Source: Nitrospirales bacterium (GTDB lineage Bacteria; Nitrospirota; Nitrospiria; Nitrospirales; UBA8639). From it: 64,000 nt of DNA. The notes under the pieces were generated by a model. The model did no database searches and was not told the DNA's origin. It worked only from the letters and a program-made list of their open reading frames with translations. This document shows, piece by piece, positions 2,276-63,082 of the stretch. Made by a program: the position numbers and the translations under genes. The stretch lies in assembly GCA_963555755.3 (NCBI GenBank), contig OY820905.2, forward strand, positions 3,680,001-3,744,000, read 5' to 3'. Positions within the stretch are counted from its first letter, which is position 1. The number at the start of each line of letters is the position of its first letter.

Positions 2276-2655
2276 GGGAATGTTGAAAAAGCATGCCCCC
2301 GCGGAGGCGGGGGGGCGTCAGCGGCGTTCTCGGCCCTTTGTCGTGCTCACGTACTGTGAGTACGCTCCACGCGTCAAAGTGCCTGCGGCCTTGCTGAGCG
2401 CACCTTTTTGAACATCCCCTGTTGCTTTTGGCGTTTCATAAGGGTTCGCGGAAGAATAACTTCATCTGGTTGGGTGCTGAGACACCTGTCTGGCAAGGCG
2501 CGAGGACTGCGCATACTCCCCGTATGGAAAGGACGAGCAACGCCGCCAGGCGGGATGGATCGACGCCCAAACAGGGGAAGGTATTCTTCCGCGCGCCCTA
2601 AGATGAGTTGCATGTGAACGGCATTATGAAAATTTTTCAATTATTCCACGGTTCC
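2276..2655. mobile_element. MITE family C, containing a family A copy and a REP-like hairpin
   Basis: GGGAATGTTGAAAAA end, inner IR TTTTTGAACATCCCC, tail homologous to 51462-51749; flanks ATAGG/ATAGT. Confidence 0.75.
2442..2598. mobile_element. MITE family A (157 bp)
   Basis: GGGTTCGCG...GCGCCC TIRs, TAA TSD, 7 copies in window. Confidence 0.9.
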
Positions 2656-2686
2656 ATAGTCTCAAACTGGATTTATTGGGTGGTCT

Positions 2687-3616
2687 GTGACTAATAACGA
2701 ACAACAGATTCGTCTATACCCTCCGGCCAAGGTGAATCTTATTTTGCGTGTTGGAGAGCGTTTGTCCAATGGCTATCATGCTTTGTGGTCGCTCATGCAG
2801 ACGGTGGGGTTGACGGATGAATTGACCATTAGAATTGATTCGTCGTTCACGGGGATTCGGTTTGAATGTGCGGGTCTCGAATTGTCACAAGCAACTGACA
2901 ACCTCGTGTATCAAGCCGCTGACCTTGTATTGCAAGAAACCGGGTCTACTGTAGGGGTGGAAATTTCTTTGCGAAAACACATTCCTGTTGCTGCCGGTTT
3001 GGGAGGCGGAAGTAGTGATGCCGCTGCCACGATTATGGGATTAAATCGTGTGTTAGGATGTGGCTGGTCTTTGTCGGAAATGATTTCTCTCGGTCAGCGG
3101 CTCGGGAGTGATGTGCCATTTTTTTTCGCCGCTCCGACCGCGGTGATTCAGGGCGTGGGTGAACGAATTTCACCAGTCACTCTTGCCGGCGATCGTTGGA
3201 TTCTCTTGGTCAATCCTGGCTTTCCGATCCACACGAAGTTAGCCTATCAACGGTTGGATGAAGGCAGAGGTGCCGGCTTTCAATCTGACAATCACTTCCC
3301 TGATTTGAATGGAACAGCTCCTTTGTCTTGGGATGATGTGTTACCCCTCATCAAAAATGATTTCGAGGATGTGCTGTTGGACGATTATCCAGAGCTGGCT
3401 CATATCAAAACAGCTTTATTGACAGCTGGAGCAGAGGCCGCGCTCGTGTCCGGGAGTGGGGCGACCATATTTGGAATATTTTCTGATGAATCGAAGGCTC
3501 AGCACGCGAGAAGGCAGTTGGCCGATTTACCTCAATGGCGCGTGTTTGTGGTGCCGGTAAAGAGAGTCGGTCTTTTGGAGTCAGGTGAGGAGTCGGGAGT
3601 AAAGAGTGAGGAGTAG
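2687..3616 (+). CDS. ispE: 4-diphosphocytidyl-2-C-methyl-D-erythritol kinase
   Basis: PAKVNL, KHIPVAAGLGGGSSDAA, GSDVPFF, SGSG. Confidence 0.95.
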   Translation: MTNNEQQIRLYPPAKVNLILRVGERLSNGYHALWSLMQTVGLTDELTIRIDSSFTGIRFECAGLELSQATDNLVYQAADLVLQETGSTVGVEISLRKHIPVAAGLGGGSSDAAATIMGLNRVLGCGWSLSEMISLGQRLGSDVPFFFAAPTAVIQGVGERISPVTLAGDRWILLVNPGFPIHTKLAYQRLDEGRGAGFQSDNHFPDLNGTAPLSWDDVLPLIKNDFEDVLLDDYPELAHIKTALLTAGAEAALVSGSGATIFGIFSDESKAQHARRQLADLPQWRVFVVPVKRVGLLESGEESGVKSEE

Positions 3617-3785
3617 AAAGGGACTTCGTGCTTTTCCCTCTGGCTCCTCACTTTGTACTTCTGACTATTTTCTCAGGAAAAGTCATTCAGTTGACAAAAT
3701 CCGAAGGATGACCTAAATACGGGGCTCAACCGAAAAGTTTTCTTTCTTTTGTGCTTGCCATTTCAACCAATTTCTCACCCACGCT

Positions 3786-4727
3786 ATGAATCCTGAATTA
3801 AAGATTTTTTCTGGGAATGCCAATCTGGCGCTGGCTCAAGAGATTTGCGCCTACCTGGAAGTTCCATTGGCAAAGGCCACGGTGTCTACCTTTAGCGACG
3901 GGGAGACTCGGGTCAAAATCGAAGAAAATGTGCGGGGTTGCGACGTGTTTGTGATGCAATCCTGTTGTAATCCAGTGAATACCTCGGTCATGGAATTATT
4001 GATCATGCTCGATGCGCTGAAACGGTCATCAGCCTTTCGCATTACGGCAGTGATCCCGTATTTTGGCTATGGCCGGCAAGACCGGAAAGATCAACCTCGT
4101 GTGCCGATTAGTGCCAAACTGATGGCGGATTTGATTACCATTGCCGGTGCCCATCGTGTCCTGACGATGGATCTGCACGCCGGCCCCATTCAAGGATTTT
4201 TCAATATTCCAGTTGATCATTTGTATGCGCGACCGGTCCTGCTGGATTATGTCAAGAAAAGTGAATTCGGAGATTTGGTCGTGGTGTCGCCCGATGCCGG
4301 TGGTGTGGAACGAGCGCGTGGGTTCGCCAAGCGATTGGAAGCGAATTTAGCCATCATCGATAAGCGGCGCGAAGGGCCTAATCAAGCCAAGGTCATGAAC
4401 ATCATTGGGGATGTGAAAGATCGTCATGTTTTGCTCCTGGATGACATGATTGACACCGCGGGGACTATTGTCGAAACCGGCAAAGCATGCGCCGACAATG
4501 GGGCATCGAGTGTGTGGGCGGTGTGCACGCACCCGGTCCTTTCCGGTCCAGCCATTGAACGAATTGAAGAGTCCTGTCTTACGCAGGTGGTGGCTACCAA
4601 TTCCATTCCCCTTCGAGGACAAGCCCAGCAATGTCCGAAAATTCGGATCCTCTCCGTTGCGCCCCTGTTAGGGGAAGCTATTCAACGTATCCATCAAGAG
4701 CAATCCGTCACATCCTTATTTGAATAA
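3786..4727 (+). CDS. prs: Ribose-phosphate pyrophosphokinase
   Basis: [31 protein letters not shown]. Confidence 0.97.
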
Positions 4728-4865
4728 CCCCCTTTTTATTCAGTGCCCAATTCTGTAGAATACACGGGTCATGTGTCGAACCTACTGAGTTGAAACCAAA
4801 TGAGGCCTTGGGTCGTCATCCATACATTTTATGGATGAGTTCATATTTTAGCGTGAGGGGATCAT

Positions 4866-5567: not shown

Positions 5568-5570
5568 CCC

Positions 5571-6140
5571 TTGCATCTCATCGTTGGTCTCGGGAACCCC
5601 GGTTCCAAGTACGCCGCTACGAGGCATAACATCGGGTGGAATGTTGTTGCCCGAGCCGCTTCGCAATGGTCCATTGGTATTTCTCCCTCCTCTACAGGTT
5701 ATGCGGGACAAGGTCAGTTAGACAAAACTCCTGTTGTCTTGGCCTTGCCGTTGACATGGATGAATCTCAGCGGCGAGGTGGTAGAATCGTTGGTGAGGGA
5801 ATATGGGATTGCCAGCGATCATTTGATCGTGGTCCATGATGATGTTGATTTGCCCGTTGGCCGATTGCGAATAAAGTTTGGTGGTGGTACTGGTGGTCAT
5901 AATGGATTGCTCTCCATCATCTTGGCTTTGGATGTCGAAGGGTTTTACCGTCTGAAATTTGGGATTGGTCGACCGGAACCTAGTCAAGAAACCGCTGATT
6001 TTGTGCTGGCTCCATTTGGGGAGTCGGAACTATCGGCTATTGATACCATGATCGATCAATCGGTTGAGGCGCTTAAATGTTTGGTCGTTGATGGGGCCAC
6101 AGAGGCCATGAATCGATTTAATCCACGAGCACAGGAGTAA
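5571..6140 (+). CDS. pth: Peptidyl-tRNA hydrolase
   Basis: LIVGLGNPG, TRHNIG, GGHNGL. Confidence 0.96.
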   Translation: MHLIVGLGNPGSKYAATRHNIGWNVVARAASQWSIGISPSSTGYAGQGQLDKTPVVLALPLTWMNLSGEVVESLVREYGIASDHLIVVHDDVDLPVGRLRIKFGGGTGGHNGLLSIILALDVEGFYRLKFGIGRPEPSQETADFVLAPFGESELSAIDTMIDQSVEALKCLVVDGATEAMNRFNPRAQE

Positions 6141-6167: not shown

Positions 6168-6347
6168 GGACCTGCGAGAAAATAACTTGATCAATATCGC
6201 GCCAAGATGTGGGTCGGATTTGGACGGAACGATTGAGAAACACCCGAGGCATAGCACAGCTATGGTGAGGGTGTTTCGATTGAGGCCCGTTCAAAGATGG
6301 CCCGAAGATTGGATGCGAGATTGATCAAGTTATTTTCTCGCAGGTCC
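6168..6347. mobile_element. MITE family F (180 bp)
   Basis: GGACCTGCGAGAAAATAACTTG TIRs, TAA TSD; 4 copies. Confidence 0.9.
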
Positions 6348-7662: not shown

Positions 7663-7761
7663 ACGCTTCTGAAGGTCCGTGATGGCAGCGAGAGGGGTGC
7701 CCCTCGCTGTTCACTTCTTTAGATTGCGTGTTGGGTTGAATACGTTAAAATGGAAGTCACT

Positions 7762-7906
7762 ACTCAGGTTGCTTCCCTTTTGGCTCAGGACAAGCCGTGA
7801 GGAGCGCAGAACCGACCCCTATTGAGCCTGTCCTGAGGTCCGTGAAGGATGAGGATTCGAGTACCACAGCAACGCCGTCATGAGCCAAAAGGGAAGTGAC
7901 CTGGGT
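7762..7906. mobile_element. MITE family I
   Basis: TIR ACTCAGGTTGCTTCCCTTTTGGCTCA; homologous to 8797-9281. Confidence 0.8.
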
Positions 7907-7939
7907 GGGTACAAATGGAATAGCGAGGATACCGGCACC

Positions 7940-8796: not shown

Positions 8797-9281
8797 TCAT
8801 GGTCACGACTCAGGTCACTTCCCTTTTGTCTCATGATGGCGCTGCTGTGGTGCTCGAATCGGATCATGCAGAATGTAGGGTTCTGGCAGCACAATACGAT
8901 CAGGTGCCAATAAAGTTATGGCACTCCTCGTGGGTTATGTCGCCTCTCCTTTTGAGCGAATTGCGTCGTCTTTTATTGTTAGGTAGCTGCAGCATCTCAT
9001 GCTGCCTCTTCCTGGCGTCATAGCCCCTTGGTCCGTGGGAAGAGGGCACGATACGATCGTGCAACTACACAAGAAAGAACGCTCACAGGAAGCAACGCCA
9101 TGGCCAAGAAACTCCATGGGGCCAGAATTGGATGGCGGTAGGATAGAACCATATATTCTGTATGATCCCTCGAATCCTCATCATTCGCGGACCTCGGGAC
9201 CAGGCTCAATAGGGGTCGGTTCTGCACGCCTCGCGCCTTGTCCTGAGCCAAAATTGAAGCAACCTGAGTCGTGACCATGAA
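8797..9281. mobile_element. MITE family I (inverted copy) interrupted by element J
   Basis: IR TTCATGGTCACGACTCAGGT / ACCTGAGTCGTGACCATGAA; internal homology to 7762-7906. Confidence 0.8.
8861..9168. mobile_element. Non-autonomous element J (308 bp)
   Basis: TIR GGATCAT(G/A)CAGAAT, 8-bp TSD CTCGAATC; empty site present in the 7762 copy. Confidence 0.85.
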
Positions 9282-11347: not shown

Positions 11348-11561
11348 GGGCATGTTGAATATTTCAAGCCCATGGCCTCGAGATGTTAAAAATACGGTAA
11401 ACAGTGTCAGTTGGAGGGAATGTTCAAAAAAGCATGCCCTGAGTCTTTCCGAAGGGTCCGTCTAGCAAGGCCGCAGCCATTTTGACGCGCGGAGCGTACT
11501 CATAGTACGTGAGCACGGCAAAATGGCGAGAACGCCGCTGGCGGCTTTTTTCAACATTCCC
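11348..11561. mobile_element. MITE family C (214 bp)
   Basis: Core near-identical to 62869-63082; outer IR GGGCATGTTGAA, inner IR GGGAATGTTCAAAAA. Confidence 0.85.
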
Positions 11562-12389: not shown

Positions 12390-12510
12390 CAGGTGCTCAC
12401 AAAGCTTGCCAGCGGCGTTCTCGGCCTGTTGCCGTGCTCACGTACAAGAGTACGCTCCGCGCGTCAACAGGCCTGCGGCCTTGCTGGACAAGCATTGTGA
12501 GCACCTGTTA
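12387..12510. mobile_element. MITE family E
   Basis: TIR TAACAGGTGCTCACAA; cargo homologous to family C. Confidence 0.8.
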
Positions 12511-14655: not shown

Positions 14656-15933
14656 ATGGTTGAGTCAAACCGACGCCGAGTGGTGATCACGGGTTTGGGC
14701 GTGGTGACGCCATTAGGGATTGGTGTGGAAAAAACCTGGCAAGCCTTAATTGCCGGGGAATCCGGGATCGCGACGATTACACGGTTTGATGCCTCCGAGT
14801 ATGTCTGCCAAATTGCTGGTGAAGTGAAAGACTTTAATCCTGGCGACTACATCGACAAAAAAGAAATCAAAAAAATGGATAGGTTCATCCACTTTGCTGT
14901 GGCGGCCAGCCAGGAGGCTGTGGATGATGCCGGATTAAAAATTACTCCTGACAATGCGGATCGTGTGGGCGTGTACATCGGTGCCGGAATGGGTGGACTC
15001 CCGGCCATCGAGCATTATCACGATGTGCTGAAGGAAAAGGGGCCTGGCCGAGTATCACCATTTTTTATCCCGATGGTCATCATCAATCTGGCTTCGGGGC
15101 AAGTCGCTATTCGGTTTGGCGCACGAGGACCAAATTCTTGCGCGGTGACGGCATGTGCAACGGGCAATCATTGTCTTGGCGATGCCCTTCGGATTATTCA
15201 ACGCGGCGAGGCGGATGTCATGTTGGCCGGGGGAGCGGAATCCGTAATCAGTCCGTTAGCAGTGGCTGGGTTTGCTGCAGCCAAGGCGTTGTCACGTCGA
15301 AACGATAATCCCGAAGGTGCGAGTCGGCCGTTCGATCGAGATCGCGACGGGTTTGTCATTGGTGAGGGAGCGGGTGTCGTGGTATTAGAAGAGCTGGAAC
15401 ATGCTCAGCGGCGGGGGGTTCGGATTTATGGTGAATTGGCCGGATATGCCATGACCAGTGATGCATTTCATATCACGGCTCCGCCGGATGAGGGGGCGGG
15501 TGCGGTCATGTGCATGGAAAAGGCCATTCACGATGCCGGGGTAGACAAGTCGGACATCGGGTATGTTAATGCCCATGCGACATCCACCTTTGCGGATAAA
15601 ATTGAAACCACGGTGATTAAAACAGTATTTGGTCAGCAAGCCTATCAGCTTCCTGTTAGTTCCACGAAGTCGATGACGGGGCATCTTCTGGGTGCGGCTG
15701 GAGGGATTGAATCGGTCTTTACGACATTGGCCTTGTACCATGGATTGCTTCCGCCGACCATTAATTTGGAAAATGCGGATCCTGATTGTGATTTGGATTA
15801 TGTTGTTGGACGGGCTCGTTCTACGCCAATCAATGTTGCGATCTCCAACGCCTTCGGTTTTGGAGGTGTCAATGCCTGCCTGGTGATGAAAAAACTTCAA
15901 ACCAGCCATCCCAATTATAGTGATTCCAAATAA
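14656..15933 (+). CDS. fabF: 3-oxoacyl-ACP synthase II
   Basis: TACATG, NAHAT, KSMTGHLLGAAG, FGFGG. Confidence 0.97.
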   Translation: MVESNRRRVVITGLGVVTPLGIGVEKTWQALIAGESGIATITRFDASEYVCQIAGEVKDFNPGDYIDKKEIKKMDRFIHFAVAASQEAVDDAGLKITPDNADRVGVYIGAGMGGLPAIEHYHDVLKEKGPGRVSPFFIPMVIINLASGQVAIRFGARGPNSCAVTACATGNHCLGDALRIIQRGEADVMLAGGAESVISPLAVAGFAAAKALSRRNDNPEGASRPFDRDRDGFVIGEGAGVVVLEELEHAQRRGVRIYGELAGYAMTSDAFHITAPPDEGAGAVMCMEKAIHDAGVDKSDIGYVNAHATSTFADKIETTVIKTVFGQQAYQLPVSSTKSMTGHLLGAAGGIESVFTTLALYHGLLPPTINLENADPDCDLDYVVGRARSTPINVAISNAFGFGGVNACLVMKKLQTSHPNYSDSK

Positions 15934-16188
15934 GTTCCATGCACTAAACTCGAAATCAGAATATCGAAATCCGAAACAAACCATAAATCCTAAATTCGAA
16001 ATCTTCCATTTGGTTATTTTAATGTGTTTCGCATTTGGAAATTCGAGATTCGGATTTTCGCCATCAGCAGAGAGAACGGAAGTTAATTGAAATAACTATA
16101 GTTTCAACGCCAATATGTGCCTGATGTTTCCCGCTCCGTTTCATACTTGCCTGGATCATCATTATTAACTTTTAGGTTTTTCCCAATT

Positions 16189-16920: not shown

Positions 16921-16925
16921 TACAA

Positions 16926-17237
16926 CTTAGAAATTGCAGTTGGATTACAAAAGTCCGCGTGCACCTGGCAAAATAAAAAACTGTCTTATCACCACTAAGG
17001 GTTCGCGCAACAATAACTTCCCCTGTTTGGGTGCTGAGACACCTGTCTGGCAAGGCGCGAGGACTGCGCATACTCCTCGTATGGAAAGGACGAGCAACGC
17101 CGTCAGACGGGATGGATCGACGCCCAAACAGGGGAAGTTATTGTTGCGCGAGCCCTTAGGTGACCACGACTTTTTGTATTTCCTCATGCACACCAATATC
17201 TTATACGTCTGTTTTGCGCCCAACTACCGTTTCTAGG
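16926..17237. mobile_element. MITE family G containing a family A copy
   Basis: C(C/T)TAGAA...TTCTAGG ends; homologous to the empty G at 41953. Confidence 0.8.
16999..17155. mobile_element. MITE family A
   Basis: 157 bp, TIRs, TAA/TTA flanks. Confidence 0.9.
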
Positions 17238-17304
17238 TTAAAAAATTTGAAAGGTGATCAGAAAATCAAAAGGTGGACACAGGTAAACAGGTAAGGAGGT
17301 TTCA

Positions 17305-19689: not shown

Positions 19690-19848
19690 GGGTCCGTCAC
19701 GAAATAACCCGTACAATTGGGAGGCCCATCTTTGGCCCAGGGCGTCGTTGCTCATCGGTCACATAGTACCTCTATGCTCCCTCGTCGCGCCTTGCCCTGA
19801 TCACTAATTTGGACCTCTCAATGGCACCGGTTATTTCGTGACGGAACT
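19690..19848. mobile_element. MITE family D, short single-arm form
   Basis: TIR GGGTCCGTCACGAAATAACC, TTA flanks. Confidence 0.85.
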
Positions 19849-19986: not shown

Positions 19987-20853
19987 GTGCCCGCTCAGTT
20001 GATTGATGGAAAAGCGCTAGCCCAAGACATTCGTCAGTGTATTGCTCAGGATATCGAGGCGTTAGTGGGGCAGACTGGAGTTCGTCCCGGCCTCGCAGTG
20101 GTGCTGGTGGGTGAGGATCCGGCCTCGGCAGTCTATGTTCGGAATAAAAAGAAAGCGTGTGATACGGCGGGATTGTATGTGGATGACCACACCCTTCCCG
20201 CTACGACAACGCAAGAAGAACTGCTTAAGCTGATTGATCAATTGAATGCCGATCCAAAGATTCATGGTATTTTGGTCCAGCTTCCGCTTCCCTCTCAAAT
20301 CGATAGCCAAACAGTGTTGAACGCCGTGTCGCCGGATAAGGATGCCGATGGGTTTCACCCCTATAACATTGGCAGGTTGGTGGCGGGTGACCCGTTGTTT
20401 GTACCGTGTACCCCTAAGGGCGTGATTCGGATGATCGAATCCACCGGACAAACCCTTGAGGGGAAACGAGCGGTAGTGTTGGGGCGCAGCAACATCGTCG
20501 GAAAGCCAGTCGCGATTTTATTGATGCACCGTCATGCCACGGTGACAATCTGTCATTCGCGAACACAAGATTTGCCAGGGATGTGTCGGGAAGCGGATAT
20601 TCTCGTGGCGGCTATTGGAAAAGCGCAATTTGTCAAAGCTGATATGGTGAAGCCCGGGGCCGTGGTGATTGATGTGGGTATCAATCGGTTGGGTGATGGC
20701 CGGTTAGTCGGCGATGTGGATTTTGAACCCGTCAAGGAACGGGCCGGCTGGCTTTCACCGGTTCCGGGCGGGGTGGGGCCCATGACGATTGCCATGTTGC
20801 TGGCCAACACGTTGGAAGCCGCCAGACGTGTTGTAAGGCCTGTGATAAAATAA
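19987..20853 (+). CDS. folD: Methylene-THF dehydrogenase/cyclohydrolase
   Basis: [30 protein letters not shown] after AAGGAGG. Confidence 0.97.
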
Positions 20854-21608
20854 CTTGGACATCTCGCATCCCATCTTCGGGCCATCATTGAACCTAGAAG
20901 CAGCAGTTGGATCACAAAAGTCCGCGCAAGCTCTCAGGGTCCGTCACGAAATAACCGGGACAATTGGCCGAGACGATTTTGGAGCGAGCCAAGGAGCGAA
21001 GAGCGCGCATACCGGGAGTATGGAAGCGATGAGCGACGCCGGCGGAGCCCAAAAGCGTCCGGCCCTCCGGGGAGGCCCATCTTTGGCCCGGGGCGGCGTT
21101 GCTCCTCGGTCACAGAGCCCCGCTCTGCTCCCTCGTCGCGCCTTGCCCCGATCACAAATCTGGGCCTCCCAATTGTCCCGGTTATTTCGTGACGGACCCT
21201 TAGCGCACCTGGCACAATACAAAAAGGTCTCATCACCACGGAGGGTTCGCGCAAGAATACCTTCCCCGGTTTGGGTGCTGAGACACCTGTCTGGCAAGGC
21301 GCGAGGACTGCGCATACTCTCGGTATGGAAAGGACGAGCAACGCCGCCAGGCGGGATGGATCGACGCCCAAACCGGGGAAGGTATTCTTGCGCGAACCCT
21401 AAGGTGACCACGACTTTTTGTATTGCACCATGCACACCAATTTCTTACACGTCTTTTTTGTGCCCAACTGCCGTTTCTAGGTTGAACGGGTCTCAATCGA
21501 AAAAGCCTCAACATAGCTGGGCTATGCGTCGGTTTTTTCTCAGTCGTTCCGTCCAAATCCGACCCAAATCTGGGCGCGATTTTGCCAAAGTTATTTTGTC
21601 ACAGGCCC
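20837..21608. mobile_element. Nested MITE composite F[G[D][A]]
   Basis: F halves 20837-20892 and 21482-21608; G 20893-21481 (TSD TTGAA); D 20937-21199; A 21243-21399. Confidence 0.88.
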
Positions 21609-23314: not shown

Positions 23315-23473
23315 GGACTCGCGCAAAAATAACTTCCCCTGTTTGGGCGTCGATCCATCCCGTCTGGGCGGCGTTGCTCGTCCTTTCCATACCGAGGAGT
23401 ATGCGCAGTCCTCGCGCCTTGCCAGACAGGTGTCTCAGCACCCAAACAGGGGAAGTTATTCTTGCGCGAACCC
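23315..23473. mobile_element. MITE family A (reverse)
   Basis: TAA TSD is the panB stop codon. Confidence 0.88.
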
Positions 23474-26152: not shown

Positions 26153-26382
26153 CATCAATGCCGTAGTCGGCAAACCAGACAACCCACCGTACAAATGGTC
26201 TAGAAAAGGGAGGCCCTACTCGCAGGGTGAATTCCCACATGTCAGACGGCGGAGTTCCGCGGATTGACCTTCAACGGGTTCCTTGGTACTTTGCTGTCCA
26301 GTCAAACAGGCCTTTTAAAATTCCTATTCTCAATTGATGACAGGGAGATTCATGAGGACTGACCTACTTAATTATATAGATA

Positions 26383-31633: not shown

Positions 31634-31877
31634 GAAATTCCGTATCTTCGTTGAAAGTACTAAGGGGCGTTGTAAGGGTGCAAACATAAGAGCTCGTTCA
31701 TGATGTGACATGGGAATAGGAATTTAAAGGGCCTTTTTGACTAGACAGGAAATTATCAAAGAAGTCACTGGGGGGTCATTCGCACCAATCAGGGAATGAA
31801 TACCGCATCTGTCAGGTGAGCCATTGAAGCCCCCCCGATTCGCCTGACAAGTGGACACATTATTTTGTGACAAGTCC

Positions 31878-34226: not shown

Positions 34227-34367
34227 GGGCACCTCTAAAAACCGTCCTTTTCCGTGATGGCGGCGTCAGCCGCGTGCTCACATCCTCATGTATTCGCCCA
34301 TACACTCCGGTTTTCCGCGCGCGGCTTCCTTGCCCGCACAAAAAATGCCTGGTTTTTAAAGGTGCCC
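34227..34367. mobile_element. MITE family B (141 bp)
   Basis: GGGCACCT(C/T)TAAAAACC TIRs, TSD TGAT; 5 copies. Confidence 0.9.
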
Positions 34368-38492: not shown

Positions 38493-38613
38493 TGGGGAAG
38501 AGGAAAAACAAACTCCATTTTTTGACTAGCACGAAAGTAGCAAAGGGACCGAGTGGTGTCAATGACACCAATCAGCGGTTTAAAAATGTTCTTGGATTCA
38601 GCAGGCGCTTCAA

Positions 38614-39226
38614 CCTAGAAACAGCAATTGGATCACAAAAGTCCGCGCAAGCTCTTAGGACCTGCGAGAAAATAACTTGAACAATCTCGCATCCAATCTT
38701 CGGGCCATCTTTGAACGGGCCTCAATCGAAAAACCCTCACCATAGCTGTGCTATGCCTCGAGTGTTTCTCAATCGTTTCGTCCAAATCCGACCCAAATCT
38801 TGGCGCGATATTGATCAAGTTATTTTCTCGCAGGTCCTTAGGGTCCGTCACGAAATAACCGGGACAATTGGCCGAGACGATTTTGGAGCGAGCCAAGGAG
38901 CGAAGAGCGCGCATACCGGGAGTATGGAAGCGATGAGCGACGCCGGCGGAGCCCAAAAGCGTCCGGCCCTCCGGGGAGGCCCATCTTTGGCCCGGGGCGG
39001 CGTTGCTCCTCGGTCACAGAGCCCCGCTCTGCTCCCTCGTCGCGCCTTGCCCCGATCACAAATCTGGGCCTCCCAATTGTCCCGGTTATTTCGTGACGGA
39101 CCCTTAGCGCACCTGATAAAATACAAAAATGCCTTATCACCACCGAGGTGACTACGACTTTTTGTATTTCATCATGCACACCAATATCTTACACGGCTTT
39201 TTTTGCGCCCAACTGCCGTGTCTAGG
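38614..39226. mobile_element. Nested MITE composite G[F,D]
   Basis: G TSD TTCAA; TTA-F(38658-38837)-TTA-D(38841-39103)-TTA. Confidence 0.9.
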
Positions 39227-39369
39227 TTCAAAGAAAAAACTTAGATGGGGGAAAAAGGCTACTTCTCTCGTTCCGTGGTGATCTGCTATCTGGTTCTTAG
39301 AGATCCGGGAAGGGGAGCGTAACGGGAGGAAATCTGAAAGAGCTGTCGGGAGTCTAAGGAGAAGATTAA

Positions 39370-39510
39370 GGGCACCTCTACAAACCAGGCATTTTTTGTG
39401 AGGGCAAGGAAGCCGCGCGCGGAAAACCGGAGTGTATGGGCGAATACATGAGGATGTGAGCACGCGGCTGACGCCGCCATCACGGAAAAGGACGGTTTGT
39501 AGAGGTGCCC
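39370..39510. mobile_element. MITE family B
   Basis: TSD TTAA. Confidence 0.9.
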
Positions 39511-39794
39511 TTAAGTGAATGACCGAATGTAGCGGTGACCGTCTTGGGCAGGTTCTTTATGAAATGCCCACAGGGACAGTAGACGGAGCAGGGCGCCAAG
39601 TCGAGGTTGTGAATCGTATGAATACAACCGTTTGGGAGTATCTTCATCAGGGTACATGCCCATGTACCGTTCCCTAATCAAGTCCTTGCCGCAGGCCACA
39701 CACTCAACGATTCCCGGAAAGTTCCCTTCTTCGCTCATTCAGGTGCTTTCCGTTTTGTGAATCAGAACAATGTGGGCCTGACCCAACAGGACAA

Positions 39795-40235
39795 CTATTC
39801 CTTGCACCAATTTGGTTTCCCTGCTTTATCGGTTGCTGGCAAGGCAAATTTTTTGTCCAGAAGCAGTTTGGATACATTTTTTCCATTCGCCATAATCCGG
39901 GCGGTGAGGTAGAAGTGCTCACCCCGCTCCAAGTCGAATAACTCAATCTCCCTGGCGTTTTCCAACACGGTATTCACAAAATTTCTGGCTTTGAGGGCAA
40001 GCTGTTTTTCCTTAACACATTGTCCGAGGATTTCGGGAGTGTCGATTCCGGCAATGCGGATTAAAAGCACGTCGCCAAAAATATTGGGAACATTGGGGAT
40101 CGAGACGAAACAGGAGTGGGCGTGGTAACACCGATGAAATGTGACATTATGAAAATGGGGGTCAATGGCTGAGACGGATGAGGGAGTAACCCCCCAGAAT
40201 ATACCAAGAAGAAGAATAAGACGGAAGAATTTCAT
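39795..40235 (-). CDS. Exported thermonuclease (SNase)-fold protein
   Basis: Signal peptide, IRIAGIDTPE, EKQLALKARNFV, NWC tail. Confidence 0.8.
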   Translation of the reverse strand: MKFFRLILLLGIFWGVTPSSVSAIDPHFHNVTFHRCYHAHSCFVSIPNVPNIFGDVLLIRIAGIDTPEILGQCVKEKQLALKARNFVNTVLENAREIELFDLERGEHFYLTARIMANGKNVSKLLLDKKFALPATDKAGKPNWCKE

Positions 40236-40279
40236 CTCTAAACTGATTTTCCCTGACTGTGACGAATGTCTCTCATGAA

Positions 40280-40592
40280 CCTAGAAGCAGCAGTGTGGAT
40301 CACAAAGGTCCGGGCAAGCTCTTGGCCACCTGGTAAAATACATCACAACGAAGTGACCACGAATTTTTTTATTTCACCATGCGCACCAATATCTCACACG
40401 GCTTTTTTGCGTCCAACTGGTGTTTCGAAGCCTATCCGAGATTAGCGATCGTCACGAGGATGTGCTGGTTTGAGTCAGATATTTCGATCGTTTGAGGCGA
40501 ATAGTTGGGCTATTCAACGAGAAGGATCGGAATATCTGGCCAAATCCCGTGCATCCGGAGTAGATCCGTCTAATCTTTGACAGGCTCCTGGG
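40280..40592. mobile_element. MITE G with family H (40427-40588) inserted in its right TIR
   Basis: TSD ATGAA at 40275 and 40593; H homologous to 62156-62317. Confidence 0.78.
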
Positions 40593-40861
40593 ATGAAGGG
40601 GGAGAGTGTACCACAAAGAAAGGAGGACACAAAACGGAAAGCCAGTTGTTTCTCTTAAGAATTTGGCGACTCTCGTCCTTGAAGTCGGCCAGGGATTCTT
40701 AATTTTGGGGGTCAAGTTTCCATAAATTTTTGCCGAACAGAGGGAAGCTCTTGACCTTATTCAGGTTGTCAGAAAACCTGAGTCATGTCATGAGGTTTAG
40801 GTCAGTCGGAGGTCCAGAGGTTTATCTCGTCGTTACCCACTTTTTGCCATAAGAGGGGCTT

Positions 40862-41809
40862 ATGCGAAACCGGATTTCTTGTTCTGCTCAACAGTTAAGT
40901 CAACTTGAACCGGATATGGTGAAATCGGTGGTTGGTGGTCATGTGTATAAGCTAGGGAGTCAATATCTTTCCGAGAGTCGTGTACGAATTATTGATGCGC
41001 ATGAAGGACACATTAATTCCGAGGTGGATGGAACCTATGGTGTGTATTCCCAAACGATCCGGTTAAAGAGTGGCACTCTCTCCACCAAGTGTTCGTGTCC
41101 GGCTAGTGAACAACCGTTTTGCCGACATTGTGTTGCCGTATTGTTGCACTATTTCCATTCTCGGTCTCTGGAGGAAGTTGTGGTGGAACCTGTGCAAGAA
41201 CCTGTAAAAGAACCTGTGCAAGAACCTGTAAAAGAACCTTCTAAGAGAACTGCAAAAGAGTCCGCAAAAGAAATAGCCAGCGATCAGCCAGCCAGTGAGC
41301 CCCAGGCCGGGTCGCGCAATGTGGATTTCAAATTTCATGAAATTGGAGCGTTTGTTGATTGGATACACGGGGCCATGGATGCGTTGGCCAAGGATGAGCC
41401 TCTTCCCAGTATTCCGGATTTACCACCAGGAGCAGTTCGGAGTTGGACCGAGGCGATTCAGGACCTTCGAGTCCGATACCAGGCCAGTGAAGAAGAACGA
41501 ACCCAAGCCCAGACAGAATTACGCGATTGTCAGAATCAGATCGCTACCCTCACACAGGATTTGGACAAATCCACGAGCGAAGCCAAAAATTATAAAGTGA
41601 AGTACGCCGAAATGCGAAATGAGTTAGACCGTTGTCAAGAAATGCTTGAAGACCATGCGGTCGTTGTAAAAGAACGTGATAAGTACGTCGATCAAATGAA
41701 TGGGTTGCGAGGCGAGCTTTTGCGGAAAGGGGCTGAGCTTGATAGTTTGGCCGATTCTCTCAAGCAAGTCTCAAGTGCCTTGCAAGCCGCGACTCCCCCG
41801 CCGCGATAG
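40862..41809 (+). CDS. SWIM zinc-finger protein with a coiled-coil C-terminus
   Basis: CSCP...CRHCVAVLL; EPVQEPVK repeat linker; heptad-rich tail. Confidence 0.85.
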   Translation: MRNRISCSAQQLSQLEPDMVKSVVGGHVYKLGSQYLSESRVRIIDAHEGHINSEVDGTYGVYSQTIRLKSGTLSTKCSCPASEQPFCRHCVAVLLHYFHSRSLEEVVVEPVQEPVKEPVQEPVKEPSKRTAKESAKEIASDQPASEPQAGSRNVDFKFHEIGAFVDWIHGAMDALAKDEPLPSIPDLPPGAVRSWTEAIQDLRVRYQASEEERTQAQTELRDCQNQIATLTQDLDKSTSEAKNYKVKYAEMRNELDRCQEMLEDHAVVVKERDKYVDQMNGLRGELLRKGAELDSLADSLKQVSSALQAATPPPR

Positions 41810-41952
41810 GTTATAGTCCAGCGCAAGGCGAAGCTCCTCTTCTCACCACCTCACGCCTCCCCGTTCACGAAGGTCAGGGGAATTTTCTACTTTTCCAAAA
41901 AAAATCCGCGCGAGCAAGTAGACCCAAGATTGTCTACCATTCCTCCACTGAA

Positions 41953-42115
41953 CCTAGAAACAGCAGTTGGGCGCAAAAAAGACGTGTAAGATATTGGTGT
42001 GCATCGTGAAAGAGAAAAAGTCGTGGTCACCTTTGTGGTGATGAGACATTTTTCTCTTTTGCGAGGTGCGCCAAGAGCTTGCGCGGACTTTTGTGATCCA
42101 ACTGCTGTTTCTAGG
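41953..42115. mobile_element. MITE family G, empty (163 bp)
   Basis: TIR CCTAGAAACAGCAGTTGG, flanks CTGAA/TTGAA. Confidence 0.88.
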
Positions 42116-42282
42116 TTGAAGACAGATTCGATTCCATCCACAGCTCGAGACGATCCCTAATATCGGATAGCCTCCTAGCACATGCAACTCGGTTCCAATG
42201 TATGGTTGGACCATTTGTTGTAATATGGAGGGTGTTGACCTTTGAAGCCCTTCCCATGCGATTGAGAATCAGGCAAGGCTTA

Positions 42283-42439
42283 GGGTTCGCGCAAGAATAA
42301 CTTCCCCTATTTGGGCGTCGATCCATCCCGTCTGGCGGCGTTGCTCGTCCTTTCCATACGAGGAGTATGCGCAGTCCTCGCGCCTTGCCAGACAGGTGTC
42401 TCAGCACCCAAATAGGGGAAGTTATTCTTGCGCGAACCC
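42283..42439. mobile_element. MITE family A
   Basis: TTA TSD; excision restores the frame RFFKPCLILN. Confidence 0.92.
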
Positions 42440-42851
42440 TTAAAGAATCTCAAGGCGGCCTGCGCGATTGCTGTACCTGCTTCATTTGTATGACCGATGG
42501 CAGTCAACACTTCCTGAATGCTTTGAAACTTTCGATTAGAGAGTGCGGTGGCAATCGGGTCACGGGCCAAAAATGCTGATAAGACTCTCCGAATCGCGGC
42601 CAATTTAATAAATCGATACAGATCAAGGACGGAAGTCGGATCGGGTGTGGCAACGGTGAGGTGACCATTCGCAAATAAAAAGAAATCCAAGGTATGAAAA
42701 TGGGTGCCGGCCCCGACATCGACCAAGACGATATCCCCTTCCAATTTCCCTATGTGATTGAGGAGCCGTTTTTTTTCTGGTGGGGAAGGTTTGACGTGAG
42801 GAGGGTTTCTCCAGTACCCGAACTGAGGGACAAATTCGGGTGAAGGGATAA

Positions 42852-42992
42852 GGGCACCTCTAAAAACCGTCCTTTTCTGTGATGGCGGCGTCAGCCGCGT
42901 GCTCACATCCTCATGTATTCGCCCATACACTCCGGTTTTCCGCGCGTGGCTTCCTTGCCCTCACAAAAAATGCCTGGTTTTTAAAGGCGCCC
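42852..42992. mobile_element. MITE family B
   Basis: TSD ATAA. Confidence 0.9.
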
Positions 42993-43436
42993 ATAAGGGT
43001 TGAACCATACCTTGCAGGGTTTTGATTTTTCGATCGAGAAAGTCCGTGAGGGTTACTGTGGGGTGAAAGTGTCCGAATAGCACATGGAGATTAGCTCCCC
43101 CTGTGTCTCAATCAACTAGGGTGGTCCGAAATCCGCGTTTGACCAGCATAAGCCCTAGATTGCTAGCCACCATGTTTTTTCCGGCTCCCACTTTTCCGGA
43201 GGCTACCGATAGGAGTGTGGGCATCGATGTGTTGGGTGGACCTATTGATAAAAACGTCAAATGTGTGGTTGTAGTTCTGGGTGCAAGTATCAACGAGAAC
43301 CAAATAGTTCGGTAAACAGTTTCTGGAGTATCTCGATGAGGCAGGGCTATTTCATATTAGAGTGTAACTTCATAAATAATAAGGAATAATCGATTTAGGC
43401 TGGCTTTTTCTTTTCGTTTGAGGCATACTCTTTTTC

Positions 43437-45465
43437 ATGCCAGACGAATCCCCAAGCGGACAGCCGGACATCGATCTGGGGCAAGTGGTGGTTCGCCCAA
43501 TTGTCCGGGACGAGAAGGACACCTTCAAGACCCTGCTCGACAGACATCACTACCTCGGGTCTGCCCCGCTGATTGGCCCATCGATCCAATACCTCGCCTG
43601 TGTGCAGGATCGCTGGCTGGCCTTGCTGGTGTTTGCGGCGGCGGCCCTCAAATCGAAACCGCGCGACCACTGGATCGGCTGGCCCCCCTGTTTTCACTGG
43701 CAACGCCTCCATTTACTAGCCAACAACACCCGGTTTCTCATCCTGCCGGGCTGTTCGCAAAAGAACCTTGCCTCGAAAGTCCTGTCGCTCTGCACGAAAC
43801 GGATCACGGCTGATTGGCAAATGTGCCACGGCTACCCCGTGCTCCTCTTAGAAACCTTCGTCGATCCTGCCCGCTTCACCGGGACCTGCTATCGAGCCGC
43901 CGGGTGGCAGGAGCTCGGGCTGACCCGAGGGTTTCGCAAGGCCAATACGCGGTATGTTCCGCATGACCGCCCCAAACGAATTCTGGTCAGAAGTCTGCAT
44001 CCCCAAGCCCGAGCGATCCTGGCCCGCCCGATGTTGGAGCCGCTCTATCAGAAAGGAGAGGTACCTCAGATGCGATTGAATGCCAAGCAGACGAACTCCC
44101 TGTTTACCTATGTGGTGCAATTGACCGATCCACGCAATTTGCAAGGGCAACGACACACCCGACGCGCCCTCACCGCGATCATGTTCTGTGCCACCTTGTG
44201 CGGCGCCGATGGCTATGAAGCGATCTCGGACTGGGCCCAGCAGTTATCTCAGACGATGCGCAAGCGGCTGGGATGCACCAAACGAGGGGGCCGCTACCTC
44301 GTCCCGAGCCGCAGCACACTCTACCGATTTATCTCGGCCGTCGACCCCTGGGAAGTCGACACCCTGCTCGGCCGGTGGCTGGACACCTTTGGGGGGGAGG
44401 ATCAGGGCATCGCCATTGATGGCAAGACCATGCGGGGGACTTCGAAGGTCCCGAGCGAACAGACCCATGTCCTCAGCGCCGTCACCCATGACGAGGGGCG
44501 CCACCTCACCCCAAAAAAGTCGACACCAAGACCAATGAGATCCCCTGCGTGCGTCCCTTATTAGATGAGCTGGAGATCGAAGGGAAGGTCATCACGGCGG
44601 ATGCGCTCCTCACCCAGAAAGAGATCGCAAATTACCTTGTGCAAGAACGCGGGGCCGACTTCGTCTTCACCGTCAAGGGGAACCAGCCGACCTTGAAGCA
44701 CGACATTGAGGCCTTGGATTTGACCGCACAACGATGTGATGATGAGACGACCGATAAGGGCCATGGGCGAATCACGATCCGCAGGATCTGGTGCGACGAC
44801 TCCCTGAATGCCTCTGTCACCTTTCCCCATGTGCAGCAAGTCTTCTGCATTGAGAGGGAAGTCGCGCATCTCAAGAAGGGCATCACGACGGTAGATACCG
44901 TATGCGGAGTCACAAGTCAGTCACCAGCGAAGGCCTCGCCGAAGAAAATCCTCTCGCAAAACCGGAAGCATTGGAGTGTGGAGAATAAGCAGCATTATGT
45001 GTTGGATGTCACCTTTGATGAAGACCGGAGTCAGATCCGACGGCTCAATGGCCCGATGGTCATGACCTGTCTGCGACGCTTGCCCTGAATGCCTCTGTCA
45101 CCTTTCCCCATGTGCAGCAAGTCTTCTGCATTGAGAGGGAAGTCGCGCATCTCAAGAAGGGCATCACGACGGTAGATACCGTATGCGGAGTCACAAGTCA
45201 GTCACCAGCGAAGGCCTCGCCGAAGAAAATCCTCTCGCAAAACCGGAAGCATTGGAGTGTGGAGAATAAGCAGCATTATGTGTTGGATGTCACCTTTGAT
45301 GAAGACCGGAGTCAGATCCGACGGCTCAATGGCCCGATGGTCATGACCTGTCTGCGACGCTATGCCATCAGTCTCTTACGCGTGAAAGGCCAAACCAATA
45401 TCGCGCAGGCGTTTCGATGGCTCTGGGCCAAGCCCCATGTAGCCATCCGCATGGCTCTGCCCTGA
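43437..45465 (+). pseudogene. DUF4338-fused ISAs1 transposase (A6G -1 frameshift; C-terminus disrupted by a duplication)
   Basis: HHYLG, NNTRFLILP, LETFVD; DPR, IAIDGKT, TNEIP, TADAL, VKGNQP, HWSVEN. Confidence 0.85.
44802..45361 (+). repeat. 279-bp tandem duplication
   Basis: 44802-45080 repeated at 45083-45361. Confidence 0.9.
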
Positions 45466-47196: not shown

Positions 47197-47354
47197 GGGT
47201 TCGTGCTAGAATAACTTCCCCTGTTTGAGTGCTGAGACGCCTGTCTGGCAAGGTGCGAGGACTGCGCATACTCCTCGTATGGAAAGGACGAGCAACGCCG
47301 CCAGACGGGATGGATCGACGCCCAAAACATGGGAAGTTATTCTTGCGCGAGCCC
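47197..47354. mobile_element. MITE family A
   Basis: Homologous to the other A copies; lies between rimP and nusA. Confidence 0.88.
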
Positions 47355-51180: not shown

Positions 51181-51462
51181 ATGATTGTCGGAGTGTGTCA
51201 GGTTCGCTTACACTTGCCGGATGGTCATTCACTCAAGGCCAAGCGTCAAGTCCTCTCGAGCTTTAAAACGCGATTATGTCAAGCTTTCAATGTTTCTGTC
51301 GCCGAGGTTGGCGATCACGATCTTTGGCAGCAAGCGACATTGGGGATTGCCTGTGTGGCGAATGAAACACGCCATGTCAATGCGGTATTGGATCAGGTCC
51401 TGAATGTCATTCGATCCAACCCTCACCTGGAGTTATTGGAGTCGCACATCGAACTGTTGTAG
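51181..51462 (+). CDS. DUF503 (YlxP) protein
   Basis: SLKAKRQV, FNVSVAEV, DLWQ; infB-rbfA synteny. Confidence 0.9.
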   Translation: MIVGVCQVRLHLPDGHSLKAKRQVLSSFKTRLCQAFNVSVAEVGDHDLWQQATLGIACVANETRHVNAVLDQVLNVIRSNPHLELLESHIELL

Positions 51463-51749
51463 GGAATGTTGAAAAAGGGCGTCAGCCATCGCCAAGGCTA
51501 CGGCAGACAAGCCAGCAGCGTTCTCGGCCCTTGGTTGTGCTCACGTACTCACCCGTACGCTCAGGGCGCCAAGCCTACTCCGCCGAAGTGGCTACGAAGG
51601 CCGGGAGCACCTGCGGCCTTGCTGAGCGCACCTCCCGCCTCCGCGAGGGCATGCTTTTTGAACATCCCCTGCTGCCCTTGGTGTGTGATAATAATGATGA
51701 GGCGCAGGTGAACGGCATGAGGAAAATATTTCAATTCATCAACAGGCTC
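51462..51749. mobile_element. MITE family C with three REP-like insertions
   Basis: 5-bp TSD TTGTA; homologous to 2276-2655. Confidence 0.85.
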
Positions 51750-51760: not shown

Positions 51761-51901
51761 GGGCACCTCTACCAACCAGGCATTTTTTGTGAGGGCAAGG
51801 AAGCCGCGCGCGGAAAACCGGAGTGTATGGGCGAATACATGAGGATTTGGGCACGCGACTGACGCCGCCATCACGGAAAAGGACGGTTTTTAGAGGTGCC
51901 C
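51761..51901. mobile_element. MITE family B
   Basis: 141 bp, TIRs. Confidence 0.88.
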
Positions 51902-53675: not shown

Positions 53676-53854
53676 GGACCTGAGAGAAAATACCTTGGAC
53701 AATATCGCGCCAAGATTTGGGTTGGATTTGGACGGAACGATTGAGAAACACCCGAGGCATAGCACAGCTATGTTGAGGGTGTTTCGATTGAGGCCCGTTC
53801 AAAGATGGCCCGAAGATTGGATGCGAGATGTCCAAGTTATTTTCTCTCAGGTCC
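53676..53854. mobile_element. MITE family F
   Basis: TIRs, CTG TSD; lies between rpsO and pnp. Confidence 0.88.
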
Positions 53855-56031: not shown

Positions 56032-56192
56032 GGGCACCTCTACAAACCAGGCATTTTGGTGAGGGCCCAGGCATTTTTTGTGAGGGCAAGGAAGCCGCGC
56101 GCGGAAAACCGGAGTGTATGGGCGAATACATGAAGATTTGAGCACGCGGCTGACGCCGCCATCACGGAAAAGGACGGTTTTTAAAGGTGCCC
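56032..56192. mobile_element. MITE family B with an internal 20-bp duplication
   Basis: CCAGGCATTTT..GTGAGGGC duplicated. Confidence 0.85.
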
Positions 56193-56329: not shown

Positions 56330-56486
56330 GGGCTCGCGCAGGAATAACTTCCCCTGTTTGGCCGTCGATCCATCCCGTCTGGCGGCGTTGCTCGTCCTTT
56401 CCATACGAGGAGTATGCGCAGTCCTCGCGCCTTGCCAGACAGGTGTCTCAACACCCAAACAGGGGAAGTTATTCCTGCGCGAACCC
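56330..56486. mobile_element. MITE family A (reverse)
   Basis: TTA TSD. Confidence 0.9.
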
Positions 56487-59412: not shown

Positions 59413-59452
59413 AAAAGGCGGGGCTCGAATCACCGAGCCCCGCCTTTTTTTT
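59413..59452. terminator. Bidirectional intrinsic terminator
   Basis: AAAAGGCGGGGCTCG / CGAGCCCCGCCTTTT between convergent genes. Confidence 0.9.
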
Positions 59453-62087: not shown

Positions 62088-62155
62088 TGTGAGAACGCGC
62101 TCTTTTCGTGATCAAAAGATTGTGGTATCAAAAAACTGAATTCCCGCTTCAGCTA

Positions 62156-62317
62156 GGAGCCTGTCCGAGATGAGCGATCGTTACGAGGATGTGCTGGTTT
62201 GAGTCAGATGTTTCGATCGTTTGAGGCGAATAGTGGGACTATTCAACGAAAAGGATCGGAAGATCTGGCCAAATCCAGCACATTCGTAGTAGATCAGTCT
62301 AATCTTGGACAGGCTCC
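62156..62317. mobile_element. MITE family H (162 bp)
   Basis: TIR GGAGCCTGTCC(G/A)AGAT, TA TSD in a CTAG context. Confidence 0.85.
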
Positions 62318-62838
62318 TAGTTTTCCTGACTCACAAGGGCGTTCAATAATTTCTGGCTTCTGGTGCCAAAGCCTTGGAGCATAACATGCCGTGAATAGCG
62401 GCTCCCGAATGTCAGATGAAGGGCGAGCCGGTCATCCGGAAGCTGAGCTTGGGAAAGCCGATCGGCCCATTCGATGACCACGACATGTTCGGTATCGAAA
62501 TATGCAGAGAGTCCGATCTCGTCAATTTCAATTGACCCTTCCAGGCGATACAGATCGACATGGGCAATCGGAGGTTGGTTCTCATATTCTTGGATAATCG
62601 TAAACGTGGGGCTGGTGACTTCCTCTGTCGAAAGCCCCATGCCTTTGGCCAGGCCACGAACAACACAGGTTTTCCCAGCGCCTAATTCACCGGTCAGGGT
62701 GATGACCTCACCACCACGCAATTCGTGTCCAATGGCCATGCCCAGTCGCTCGGTGTCTAATCGTGACCGCAAAAGGCATTTCCATTGATGTTTTCCCTTG
62801 TGAGAAAATCGAAGTTTTTGAAGTCGGAAATCTCCCAC
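62317..62838 (-). CDS. tsaE: tRNA t6A biosynthesis ATPase TsaE
   Basis: GELGAGKT, VTSPTF, HVDLYRL, IEWAD; start uncertain. Confidence 0.93.
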   Translation of the reverse strand: MGDFRLQKLRFSHKGKHQWKCLLRSRLDTERLGMAIGHELRGGEVITLTGELGAGKTCVVRGLAKGMGLSTEEVTSPTFTIIQEYENQPPIAHVDLYRLEGSIEIDEIGLSAYFDTEHVVVIEWADRLSQAQLPDDRLALHLTFGSRYSRHVMLQGFGTRSQKLLNALVSQEN

Positions 62839-62868
62839 GCCCGTCTCTTGATTTGAAAATTCCTTGAA

Positions 62869-63082
62869 GGGCCTGTTGAATATTGCACTCCAACAGCCAA
62901 TAAAAGCTCCAAATGAGCCACGCATCGTCAGTGGGAGGGAATGTTCAAAAAAGCATGCCCTGAGTCTTTCCGAAGGGTCTATCCAGCAAGGCCGCAGCCA
63001 TTTTGACGAGCGGAGCGTACTCATAGTACGTGAGCACGGCAAAATGGCGAGAACGCCGCTGGCGGCTTTTTTCAACATTCCC
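62869..63082. mobile_element. MITE family C (214 bp)
   Basis: 5-bp TSD TTGAA. Confidence 0.88.

Follow-up and report, generated by a model that had tools for sequence, protein, structure and literature searches.

A 64,000-nucleotide stretch of a Nitrospirales genome (assembly GCA_963555755.3, contig OY820905.2, positions 3,680,001 to 3,744,000; called the window below), part of the 4.61-Mb contig that is the chromosome of this genome, carried MITEs (miniature transposable elements with inverted repeats) of several families, lettered A to J here, in which one two-part module was enclosed by unrelated ends. Judged from sequence, this module makes up the centre of ERIC, a repeat known for a long time, and the spacer between its two parts was 9-10 or 18-21 nt and almost never of a length in between. 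The elements are non-autonomous transposons, each formed as one long hairpin around an ERIC-type core. The core itself may be a protein site on folded DNA that aids transposition, with HU as a candidate reader, a reading that we put forward tentatively.

A two-part module in families with unrelated ends

The module consisted of a basal loop and an apical hairpin on one strand. In the basal part, C-AA-G-GC stood opposite RAC-GC-N-G, forming two staggered bulges around a helix of 2-3 bp. The apical part comprised tandem GA/GA, a G.T pair, a 5-bp stem (mostly NNTAC/GTANN) and a free loop of 4-6 nt; the apex of family A and of the first arm of family D had GCG/GAA instead, as a preliminary description of this DNA had noted. 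The two-part module (a CAAGG/RACGCNG loop plus a GA/GA-closed 5-bp apical hairpin) was present in families A, B, C, D, I and J, while E and H matched it weakly, F had the apex only and G was without the module. The preliminary description had placed the basal motif in A, B, C, D, E and I and the GA/GA apex in B, C, E, the second arm of D, F and H; the basal motif was found again in A, B, C, D and I, and also in J, and the apex in B, C, D and F, with E and H as weak matches to the module. For its further claim that unpaired positions are purine-rich on one strand only, the purine share at unpaired positions of the motif strand was 74-84% in A, B, E, F and H, 57% in C and 52% in D, the two arms of which face opposite ways.

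The motif was more frequent than chance would give. CAAGG..RACGCCG occurred 771 times in the chromosome, a Markov-3 control giving 230; in the window it was counted 26 times, compared with 2 when its halves were swapped. A two-part descriptor written from the window families gave 473 matches in the chromosome, with none in the reversed and none in the complemented chromosome sequence.

Identity with ERIC and spread across bacteria

The spacer between aceF and lpd of E. coli K-12 showed the motif directly. The ERIC2 primer, whose sequence was checked in PMC6491665, spans the apical hairpin and marks 12 sites in K-12; the window-derived descriptor fully fitted 3 of these 12 copies, with spacers of 21/21. 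A cross-phylum model (R1) was built from 15 sequences of the long-spacer class, eight of which were metagenome contigs and none of which came from the window or from named enterobacteria. R1 found 24 window elements at E<0.05 (in A, B, C, I, the second arm of D, E, H and J) and 13 K-12 sites, six of them among the 12 marked by the primer; F, the first arm of D and G were not found by it in the window. The module can thus not be regarded as wholly new, since it is already the centre of ERIC.

The ERIC repeat (also IRU or RU-1), a 127-bp enterobacterial MITE, resembled the window families in having the same core within a long hairpin in intergenic positions. ERIC elements of about 127 bp have ERIC ends and TA flanks, whereas the window families had other ends, target site duplications (TSDs) of 2, 3, 4 and 8 bp and lengths of 118-263 bp, and their short-spacer class was not seen in the K-12 ERIC copies. 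The window families share the ERIC core but are not ERIC. Table 1 of one review lists no DNA motif for ERIC (PMC2229807), another describes the MITE cores of Neisseria, E. coli and Anabaena as showing no similarity (PMC3184786), and MITEEc1 is listed in the IS630 family (10.1101/2024.01.18.576219). No paper on a core common to MITE families or on its spacing was found in the open-access texts covered.

A scan of 1/64 of the GTDB collection gave 121 matches at 118 loci, from which about 15,000 stretches were estimated overall. The apical stem was perfect in 115 of the 121 matches, and the 3' basal motif, which lay outside the search pattern, was present in 96. By the titles of the loci the module occurred in about 12 phyla: Gammaproteobacteria, Nitrospirota, Desulfobacterota, Bacteroidota, Clostridia, Verrucomicrobiota, Acidobacteriota, Planctomycetota, Campylobacterota, Spirochaetota, Myxococcota and Gemmatimonadota. 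The pattern was counted 1-86 times per genome in 24 GTDB genomes (0-1 for the reversed control) and 0 to 215 times among 31 genomes, namely this one and 30 relatives. Family C was nearly identical to repeats in Nitrospira/Nitrospirales records (L007, L008, L024 and L072). Module elements directly adjoined tRNA genes at L008 (an Rfam match) and at L310 and L385 (tRNA-like starts by eye).

Rfam at the gathering cut-off matched only tRNA in the window, and a search of 38500-43100 returned noise. The Rfam family V_AS5 (RF02818), a Vibrio model, aligned at E values of 3e-4 to 0.3 with loci of the ERIC type in Citrobacter, Pantoea and Vibrio, far below its cut-off (33 bits compared with 96); it had no match in the window at the gathering level, nor any in 38500-43100 at E up to 5.

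Spacing of the basal and apical motifs

The spacer, measured from CAAGGC to the apical GAG, was left free at 8-36 nt in the GTDB scan and at 5-35 nt in an independent metagenome scan, in which the apical stem was also free. Among the 121 GTDB matches, 25 had spacers of 9-10 nt and 88 of 19-21 nt; 114 fell within 9-10 or 18-21 nt, and none at 13-17 nt. A perfect 5-bp stem was found in 60 of 122 metagenome matches, and the spacers of these 60 were 9-10 nt in 22, 18-21 nt in 37 and 29 nt in one, again with none at 13-17 nt. Phage contigs searched with the same pattern had a paired apex in 0 of 120 matches, for which reason they were used as a chance control, and their spacers were flat. In this genome the 473 descriptor matches had a spacer of 9 nt in 173 cases and of 18-20 nt in 300.

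The long class exceeded the short one by 10.35 nt (bootstrap 10.08-10.63, 166 matches), a step that is nearer to B-DNA (10.5) than to A-form RNA (11). A spacer of exactly 9 nt was seen in 24 of 36 short-class matches, and the long class lay at 19-21 nt. The short class occurred in several phyla with differing middle stems, and both forms, of 10 and of 20 nt, were present in one Bacteroidales genome. A third step may be represented by four matches at 27-31 nt. Extensions of the left arm only, of about 20-26 nt and including some arm duplications, recurred in unrelated families (genomes G236, G234, G245 and G239; window 56032-56192).

Terminal repeats and partner insertion sequences

That a structured, strand-specific module is shared by elements with the ends of unrelated insertion sequences (ISs) was corroborated within this one genome by J and H. 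The J ends agreed at 14 of 14 terminal bases with those of a 2413-bp IS66 element (chromosome 996882-999294), both having an 8-bp TSD, and 12 pairs of J ends lay 2413 bp apart in the genome. The H ends matched a resident IS1182 at 14 of 14 bases at one end and at 10 at the other. Because the IS66 and IS1182 elements encode transposases and are without the module, the interiors of J and H are not deletion products of them. The ends of C tentatively resembled IS5 (10-11/14) and those of F ISNCY (11/14). Autonomous elements were thus matched to J and H, partially to C and F, and not to A, B, D or E. A gammaproteobacterium had ends similar to those of B together with a canonical core, and a spirochaete had H-like ends, which indicates that ends and cores reassort across phyla.

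The GAG/TGA-type module was found in 0 of 49 multi-copy elements with drawable ends (of 111 clusters). The search for a partner of A in 200 genomes of the phylum gave scattered matches with 1-2 mismatches at about the control rate, and the 30 loci that were read held no IS end except the copy in this genome itself; PF13340 (the IS427/IS1031 groups of IS5) had no match in the genome. The 12 regions read between widely separated ends of A, B, E, F or H, considered as autonomous elements, were rejected since they were nested insertions, except for the J-type IS66; inside them lay IS630, IS1634, IS5, IS1595, IS110, other MITEs or host genes. The transposase genes of the window belonged to IS6, ISL3, ISAs1, IS1595 and IS110, and they were flanked by the terminal repeats of no family, in keeping with the earlier statement that the window holds no cognate transposase.

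An IS110-family element was present at the same left-arm position of C in 12 of 12 copies (e.g. chromosome 1893133-1894492), and its recombinase would target a MITE as other IS110 elements target REPs. DruA had a Pfam match at window 43437-44564, apparently ahead of the transposase in the ISAs1-type element 43437-45088; the open reading frame (ORF) ahead of the transposase in the IS66 element at 996882-999294 was DruA-like by eye (Druantia), with 74 tblastn matches in the genome.

Selection for pairing and copying between the arms

Covariation, on which the preliminary description had made its module depend, was detected. In cross-phylum alignments of 15 and 18 sequences, both sides changed in 30 of 39 and 16 of 22 pairs, which was above all 500 shuffles and all slid controls; the sequences had been chosen from 166 matches for equal spacer and loop length and a paired apex, so that the counts for the apex are not independent evidence. 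Changes that kept a pair and changes that broke it stood at 78:28 in common variants compared with 225:367 in rare ones (p=1e-11), showing selection for pairing in the variants that multiplied. These variants keep the fold, and the module therefore likely helps the elements to spread; the earlier wording that it had hitchhiked on IS ends was right about the unrelated ends but undersells this result.

Double changes in rare variants restored a Watson-Crick pair in 35 cases and did not in 7, and those restoring a pair lay within 30 nt of the tip in 12 of 12 cases in A and 11 of 12 in F. Two independent changes would roughly be expected to give 1-2 restoring doubles, so the excess indicates that within single copies one arm was copied from the other in DNA, which also warns that covariation by itself is no proof of selection. 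The bulges persisted although such copying should erase them, and motif positions were changed in 3 of 149 common variants compared with 45 of 774 rare ones (p=0.07). Copying of the tips from flanking DNA at insertion was set aside, as the tips of short C elements fell into few recurring types.

Orientation to genes and replication

No overall orientation bias to genes was observed: with gene calls from a simple in-house ORF finder, the motif strand between co-directional genes lay 315 times in sense and 322 times in antisense direction. The young families A, B, F and H were near 50:50. The old family C was antisense-biased near gene 3' ends (48:73, p=0.03; between convergent genes 15:40, p=0.001). 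Families E and D leaned to one replication strand, and D nests in E; the replication-strand counts were 22:40 in one further genome (G227), taking position 1 as the origin.

Proposed mechanism and alternative explanations

In the reading that we favour, one strand of the element would fold back, either as a cruciform or, at a fork or in the course of transfer, as single-stranded DNA. The basal loop with its two staggered bulges and the apical GA/GA would then form hinges 9-10 or 19-20 bp apart on the same face of the helix. In short transposons, helical phase and bending set a limit; an architectural protein bound to the hinges would bring the paired ends to, or keep them at, a place accessible to a transposase, and an element of 120-180 bp would thereby escape the cost of bending. 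The core would serve whichever IS transposase recognises the ends of the element, and joining of the hairpin to a new IS end, followed by fold-back copying that makes both ends alike, would give rise to a new family. HU is a candidate for the protein because it kinks DNA at points 9 bp apart (10.1101/2021.06.17.448862) and binds bulged and cruciform DNA; PMC2241890 describes binding to bulges and packing every 9-11 bp, and no binding to mismatches of 1-2 bp. This genome has five HU/IHF genes. No IHF consensus site was found in the module. A kink-turn, in which a 3-nt bulge lies directly 5' of tandem G.A pairs, was rejected since the alignments had 0 or 1 bulged base before GA/GA, and CsrA (GGA) sites were set aside, the cores of ERIC and C having a single GGA. 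The Correia (NEMIS) element of Neisseria is a likeness in function, as its interior has an IHF site suggested to aid transposition (PMC2229807); that site is a duplex sequence in one genus, whereas the module is described for the folded strand only and across transposase families, and the two are set apart on these descriptions. Correia elements, the RPE of Rickettsia and the pneumococcal BOX are nevertheless candidate carriers of such a core. A bolder version, in which the core would be a single ancient pan-bacterial transposition enhancer with helically phased hinges, ERIC being one outfit of it, serving any DDE transposase (IS66, IS1182, IS5 and IS630 types), is doubtful; here the fold-back or cruciform intermediate would pair the two ends of one strand and fold-back copying would capture new IS ends.

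Several results speak against a folded-DNA site. Only two spacer classes were well filled, which means that two old lineages could mimic a period, and related sequences among the matches are not independent. Distances from the tip to the basal motif clustered near 25, 35 and 53 nt (24, 34-35 and 52-54 nt in the families of this genome), but the best period varied with the method (10.5-11; 9.5, with p=0.065 at 10.5; and 9, where 4 of 16 groups were visibly mis-called), and with three methods giving periods from 9 to 11 the phasing of tip and core was reduced to mere clustering. HU reads shape rather than sequence and so leaves the fixed letters CAAGGC/AACGC unexplained. The search for a partner IS found none for A, B, D or E, a partial or degenerate module did not keep F, E and H from reaching 43-87 full copies, and a weak replication bias was seen (472 leading, 533 lagging, p=0.058). 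Copying between arms is typical of any quasi-palindrome and can give covariation without selection. RNA energy rules gave the covarying fold (z of -3.0 in A, -4.0 in B and -3.0 in C), while DNA energy rules missed it in A and B (z of -0.9 each), and the phage control for loop types had only 17 loops, which is too few. DNA energy rules may underrate tandem GA pairs.

Since RNA energy rules fit the core better, a role in RNA stays open, although we consider it somewhat unlikely: the transcribed module would act as RNA for the element, with an RNA-binding protein as its reader, with a double-strand nuclease measuring it, or with reverse transcription before a transposase inserts it. The invariant G.U beside the tandem GA agrees with this, as does the annotation of V_AS5 as a Vibrio antisense RNA with its matches below the cut-off; with the non-canonical pairs counted, an A-form helix also agrees with the step of 10-11, and many multi-copy ORFs resembled group II intron proteins by reading of their sequences. 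Against it stand the lack of a sense bias, the near absence of stable RNA tetraloops (UUCG in 1 and GNRA in 0 of 46 loops of 4 nt), ends and TSDs of the DDE-transposon type, and copying from arm to arm, which requires DNA or reverse transcription. In the outer arms single G.A mismatches (78) were about as frequent as G.T (83). The folded-DNA site is favoured over RNA because of the step of about 10.4, the few RNA tetraloops, the similar numbers of G.A and G.T, the arm copying and the lack of a link to transcription.

It is improbable that the module is a separate, tiny REP-like mobile unit moved by a single-strand enzyme of the HUH/RAYT type, with IS ends acquired secondarily. The REP of E. 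coli, like the module an imperfect hairpin, is read by TnpAREP (RAYT) on one strand through a conserved bulge, and AAGGCG and ACGCCGC, 13 letters that face each other in the same way, occur both in REP hairpins (181 exact matches; K-12 REP e.g. 5645-5664) and in the basal motif of family A; the AA/GC bulge of REP, in a GGCG/CGCC stem, is required for TnpAREP binding (PMC3479197), and in two genomes (G232, G243) copies had variable arms and no clear TSD. However, the REP is about 35 nt long, has a GTAG tag and is without terminal inverted repeats or TSD, whereas the module families had long arms, mostly clean IS-type TSDs and no linked Y1 gene; no GTAG tag stood at the foot of the stem, the bases before CAAGG varied, the bulges were staggered and not 2x2 as in REP, and the 13 shared letters include four self-complementary pairs, so that chance is possible. 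The earlier suggestion of an HUH-type substrate likewise found no support in this genome, as the module lay on both sides of 0 of 17 Y1/RAYT-like genes and within 1 kb on one side in 35% of them, compared with 32% of all genes.

That the host keeps the module as a cis-acting mRNA element affecting stability, processing or termination, a role put forward for the ERIC of Yersinia, is quite improbable. An orientation-dependent RNase E effect is reported for ERIC (PMC2229807, PMC3184786), and the antisense bias of C near gene 3' ends points the same way, but that bias could stem from an extra hairpin with a T-run in the left arm of C, the young families A, B, F and H were near 50:50, copy number ranged from 0 to 215 within one genus, and selection appeared in the variants that multiplied. 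Least probable is that the module has no reader, near-perfect hairpins drifting to the most stable mismatches (GA and GT) and the shared letters being inherited baggage. Purine-rich mismatches are indeed the stable ones, arm copying alone can yield covariation, and F, E and H spread without the full motif; yet the unpaired letters were fixed across about 12 phyla while the intervening stems were replaced, the spacer range of 13-17 nt was empty, and the bulges that copying should erase were rarely changed in common variants.

Elements of the window

The terminal-repeat scan of the window gave 34 MITEs in 10 families (A7, B5, C4, I1, D3, F4, E5, H2, J2 and G1; Table 1), in agreement with the earlier figure of about 35 in about 10, and the stretches quoted earlier for A (17051-17102), B (from 39405) and C (11466-11537) were exact. 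Two degenerate ends (the left of one A and the right of one E) were placed by a separate reading, outside that scan. The elements had terminal inverted repeats, no transposase gene, lengths below 500 bp and many dispersed copies, with 17-283 cores per family, and the fold of every family was a single long rod. Nearly all lay in intergenic positions within housekeeping operons. With the family interiors as queries, BLAST found 1,005 cores without overlap across the chromosome: A 174, B 123, C 283, D1 44, D2 46, F 122, H 97, E 99 and J 17.

Genome-wide, the TSD was 3 bp in 90 of 160 copies of A, 58 of 87 of F, 48 of 65 of E and 10 of 38 of D, most D copies being nested; it was 4 bp in 97 of 120 copies of B, 2 bp in 19 of 43 of H and 8 bp in J. 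The TSD lengths given earlier therefore held for A, D, F, B, H and J, but the 5 bp given for C was present at 62869-63082 and is not confirmed as a rule of the family.

Nesting was frequent in the window, with A, D and F inside E and E inside F. Insertions of A, D, F, H and C at fixed sites made family E a kind of landing pad (16925-17238, 20836-21608 and 38613-39227), and nests made of MITEs only reached about 940 bp elsewhere in the chromosome (e.g. 68939-69876). D (20937-21199 and 38841-39103) was a dimer with one module per strand inside a single pair of ends, and 19690-19848 was its one-armed form. G (15916-16100) was AT-rich with short internal CGAAAT-type repeats and had 57 BLAST matches, 7 of them full length. 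A further dispersed repeat at 26207-26335 and 31711-31794 had 22 full copies and neither terminal inverted repeats nor the module, and where the ISAs1-type element ends, 279 nt were duplicated exactly in tandem (44802-45361).

Table 1. MITEs of the window, with strand and remarks (R1, cross-phylum model)
Element	Position	Strand	Remarks
C	2276..2419	-	long-spacer module, core 2311-2405, 45 bits with R1
A	2442..2598	+	short-spacer module, 3-bp TSD
F	6168..6347	+	apical hairpin and GA pairs only, no basal motif; missed by R1
J	7756..7912	+	IS66-type ends, 8-bp TSD, degenerate module, R1 E 6e-4
J	8802..9275	-	interior interrupted by insertion
C, long form	11348..11561	+	inner unit from 11416, core 11466-11537, spacers 20/18, 52 bits
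I (short C-type, own ends)	12390..12507	-	118 bp, 52.6 bits
G	15916..16100	.	no module, no R1 match
E	16925..17238	-	A copy in apex
A	16999..17155	+	core 17051-17102, spacers 9/9, GA ladder
D, one-armed	19690..19848	-	canonical short module, 31 bits
F	20836..21608	-	interrupted by nest of E, D, A
E	20892..21482	-	contains D and A
D, two-armed	20937..21199	.	module on + strand in arm 1, - strand in arm 2
A	21243..21399	+	R1 match
A	23315..23473	-	degenerate left end, R1 match
B	34227..34367	-	4-bp TSD, spacers 19/18
E	38613..39227	-	contains F and D
F	38658..38837	-	within E 38613..39227
D, two-armed	38841..39103	.	one module per strand
B	39370..39510	+	core from 39405, 51.7 bits
E, degenerate	40279..40426	-	
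H	40427..40588	+	IS1182-type ends, degenerate module, R1 E 0.009
E, uninterrupted	41952..42116	+	degenerate module, R1 E 2.5e-4
A	42283..42439	-	
B	42852..42992	-	
A	47197..47354	+	between rimP and nusA
C	51462..51669	-	extra hairpins inserted
B	51761..51901	+	
F	53676..53854	+	directly upstream of pnp
B	56032..56192	+	20-nt duplication in left arm
A	56330..56486	-	
H	62156..62317	+	R1 E 6e-4
C, long form	62869..63082	+	inner unit from 62937, 5-bp TSD, 50.9 bits

Significance

Typing has made use of ERIC repeats for 30 years, and to our knowledge the conservation of their centre has had no explanation. ERIC and MITEs are already known; new here are the spacing rule, the J and H ends that match ISs without the core, the lack of an orientation bias and the copying from arm to arm. 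The same core lies with strict geometry inside the ends of unrelated transposase families in about 12 phyla, and this genome provides matched pairs of MITE and IS, J with IS66 and H with IS1182. The mechanism is unproven but now directly testable. If the core does help short elements to move, this would explain why many bacterial MITEs are full-length hairpins, and the core could become a part for very small transposon tools.

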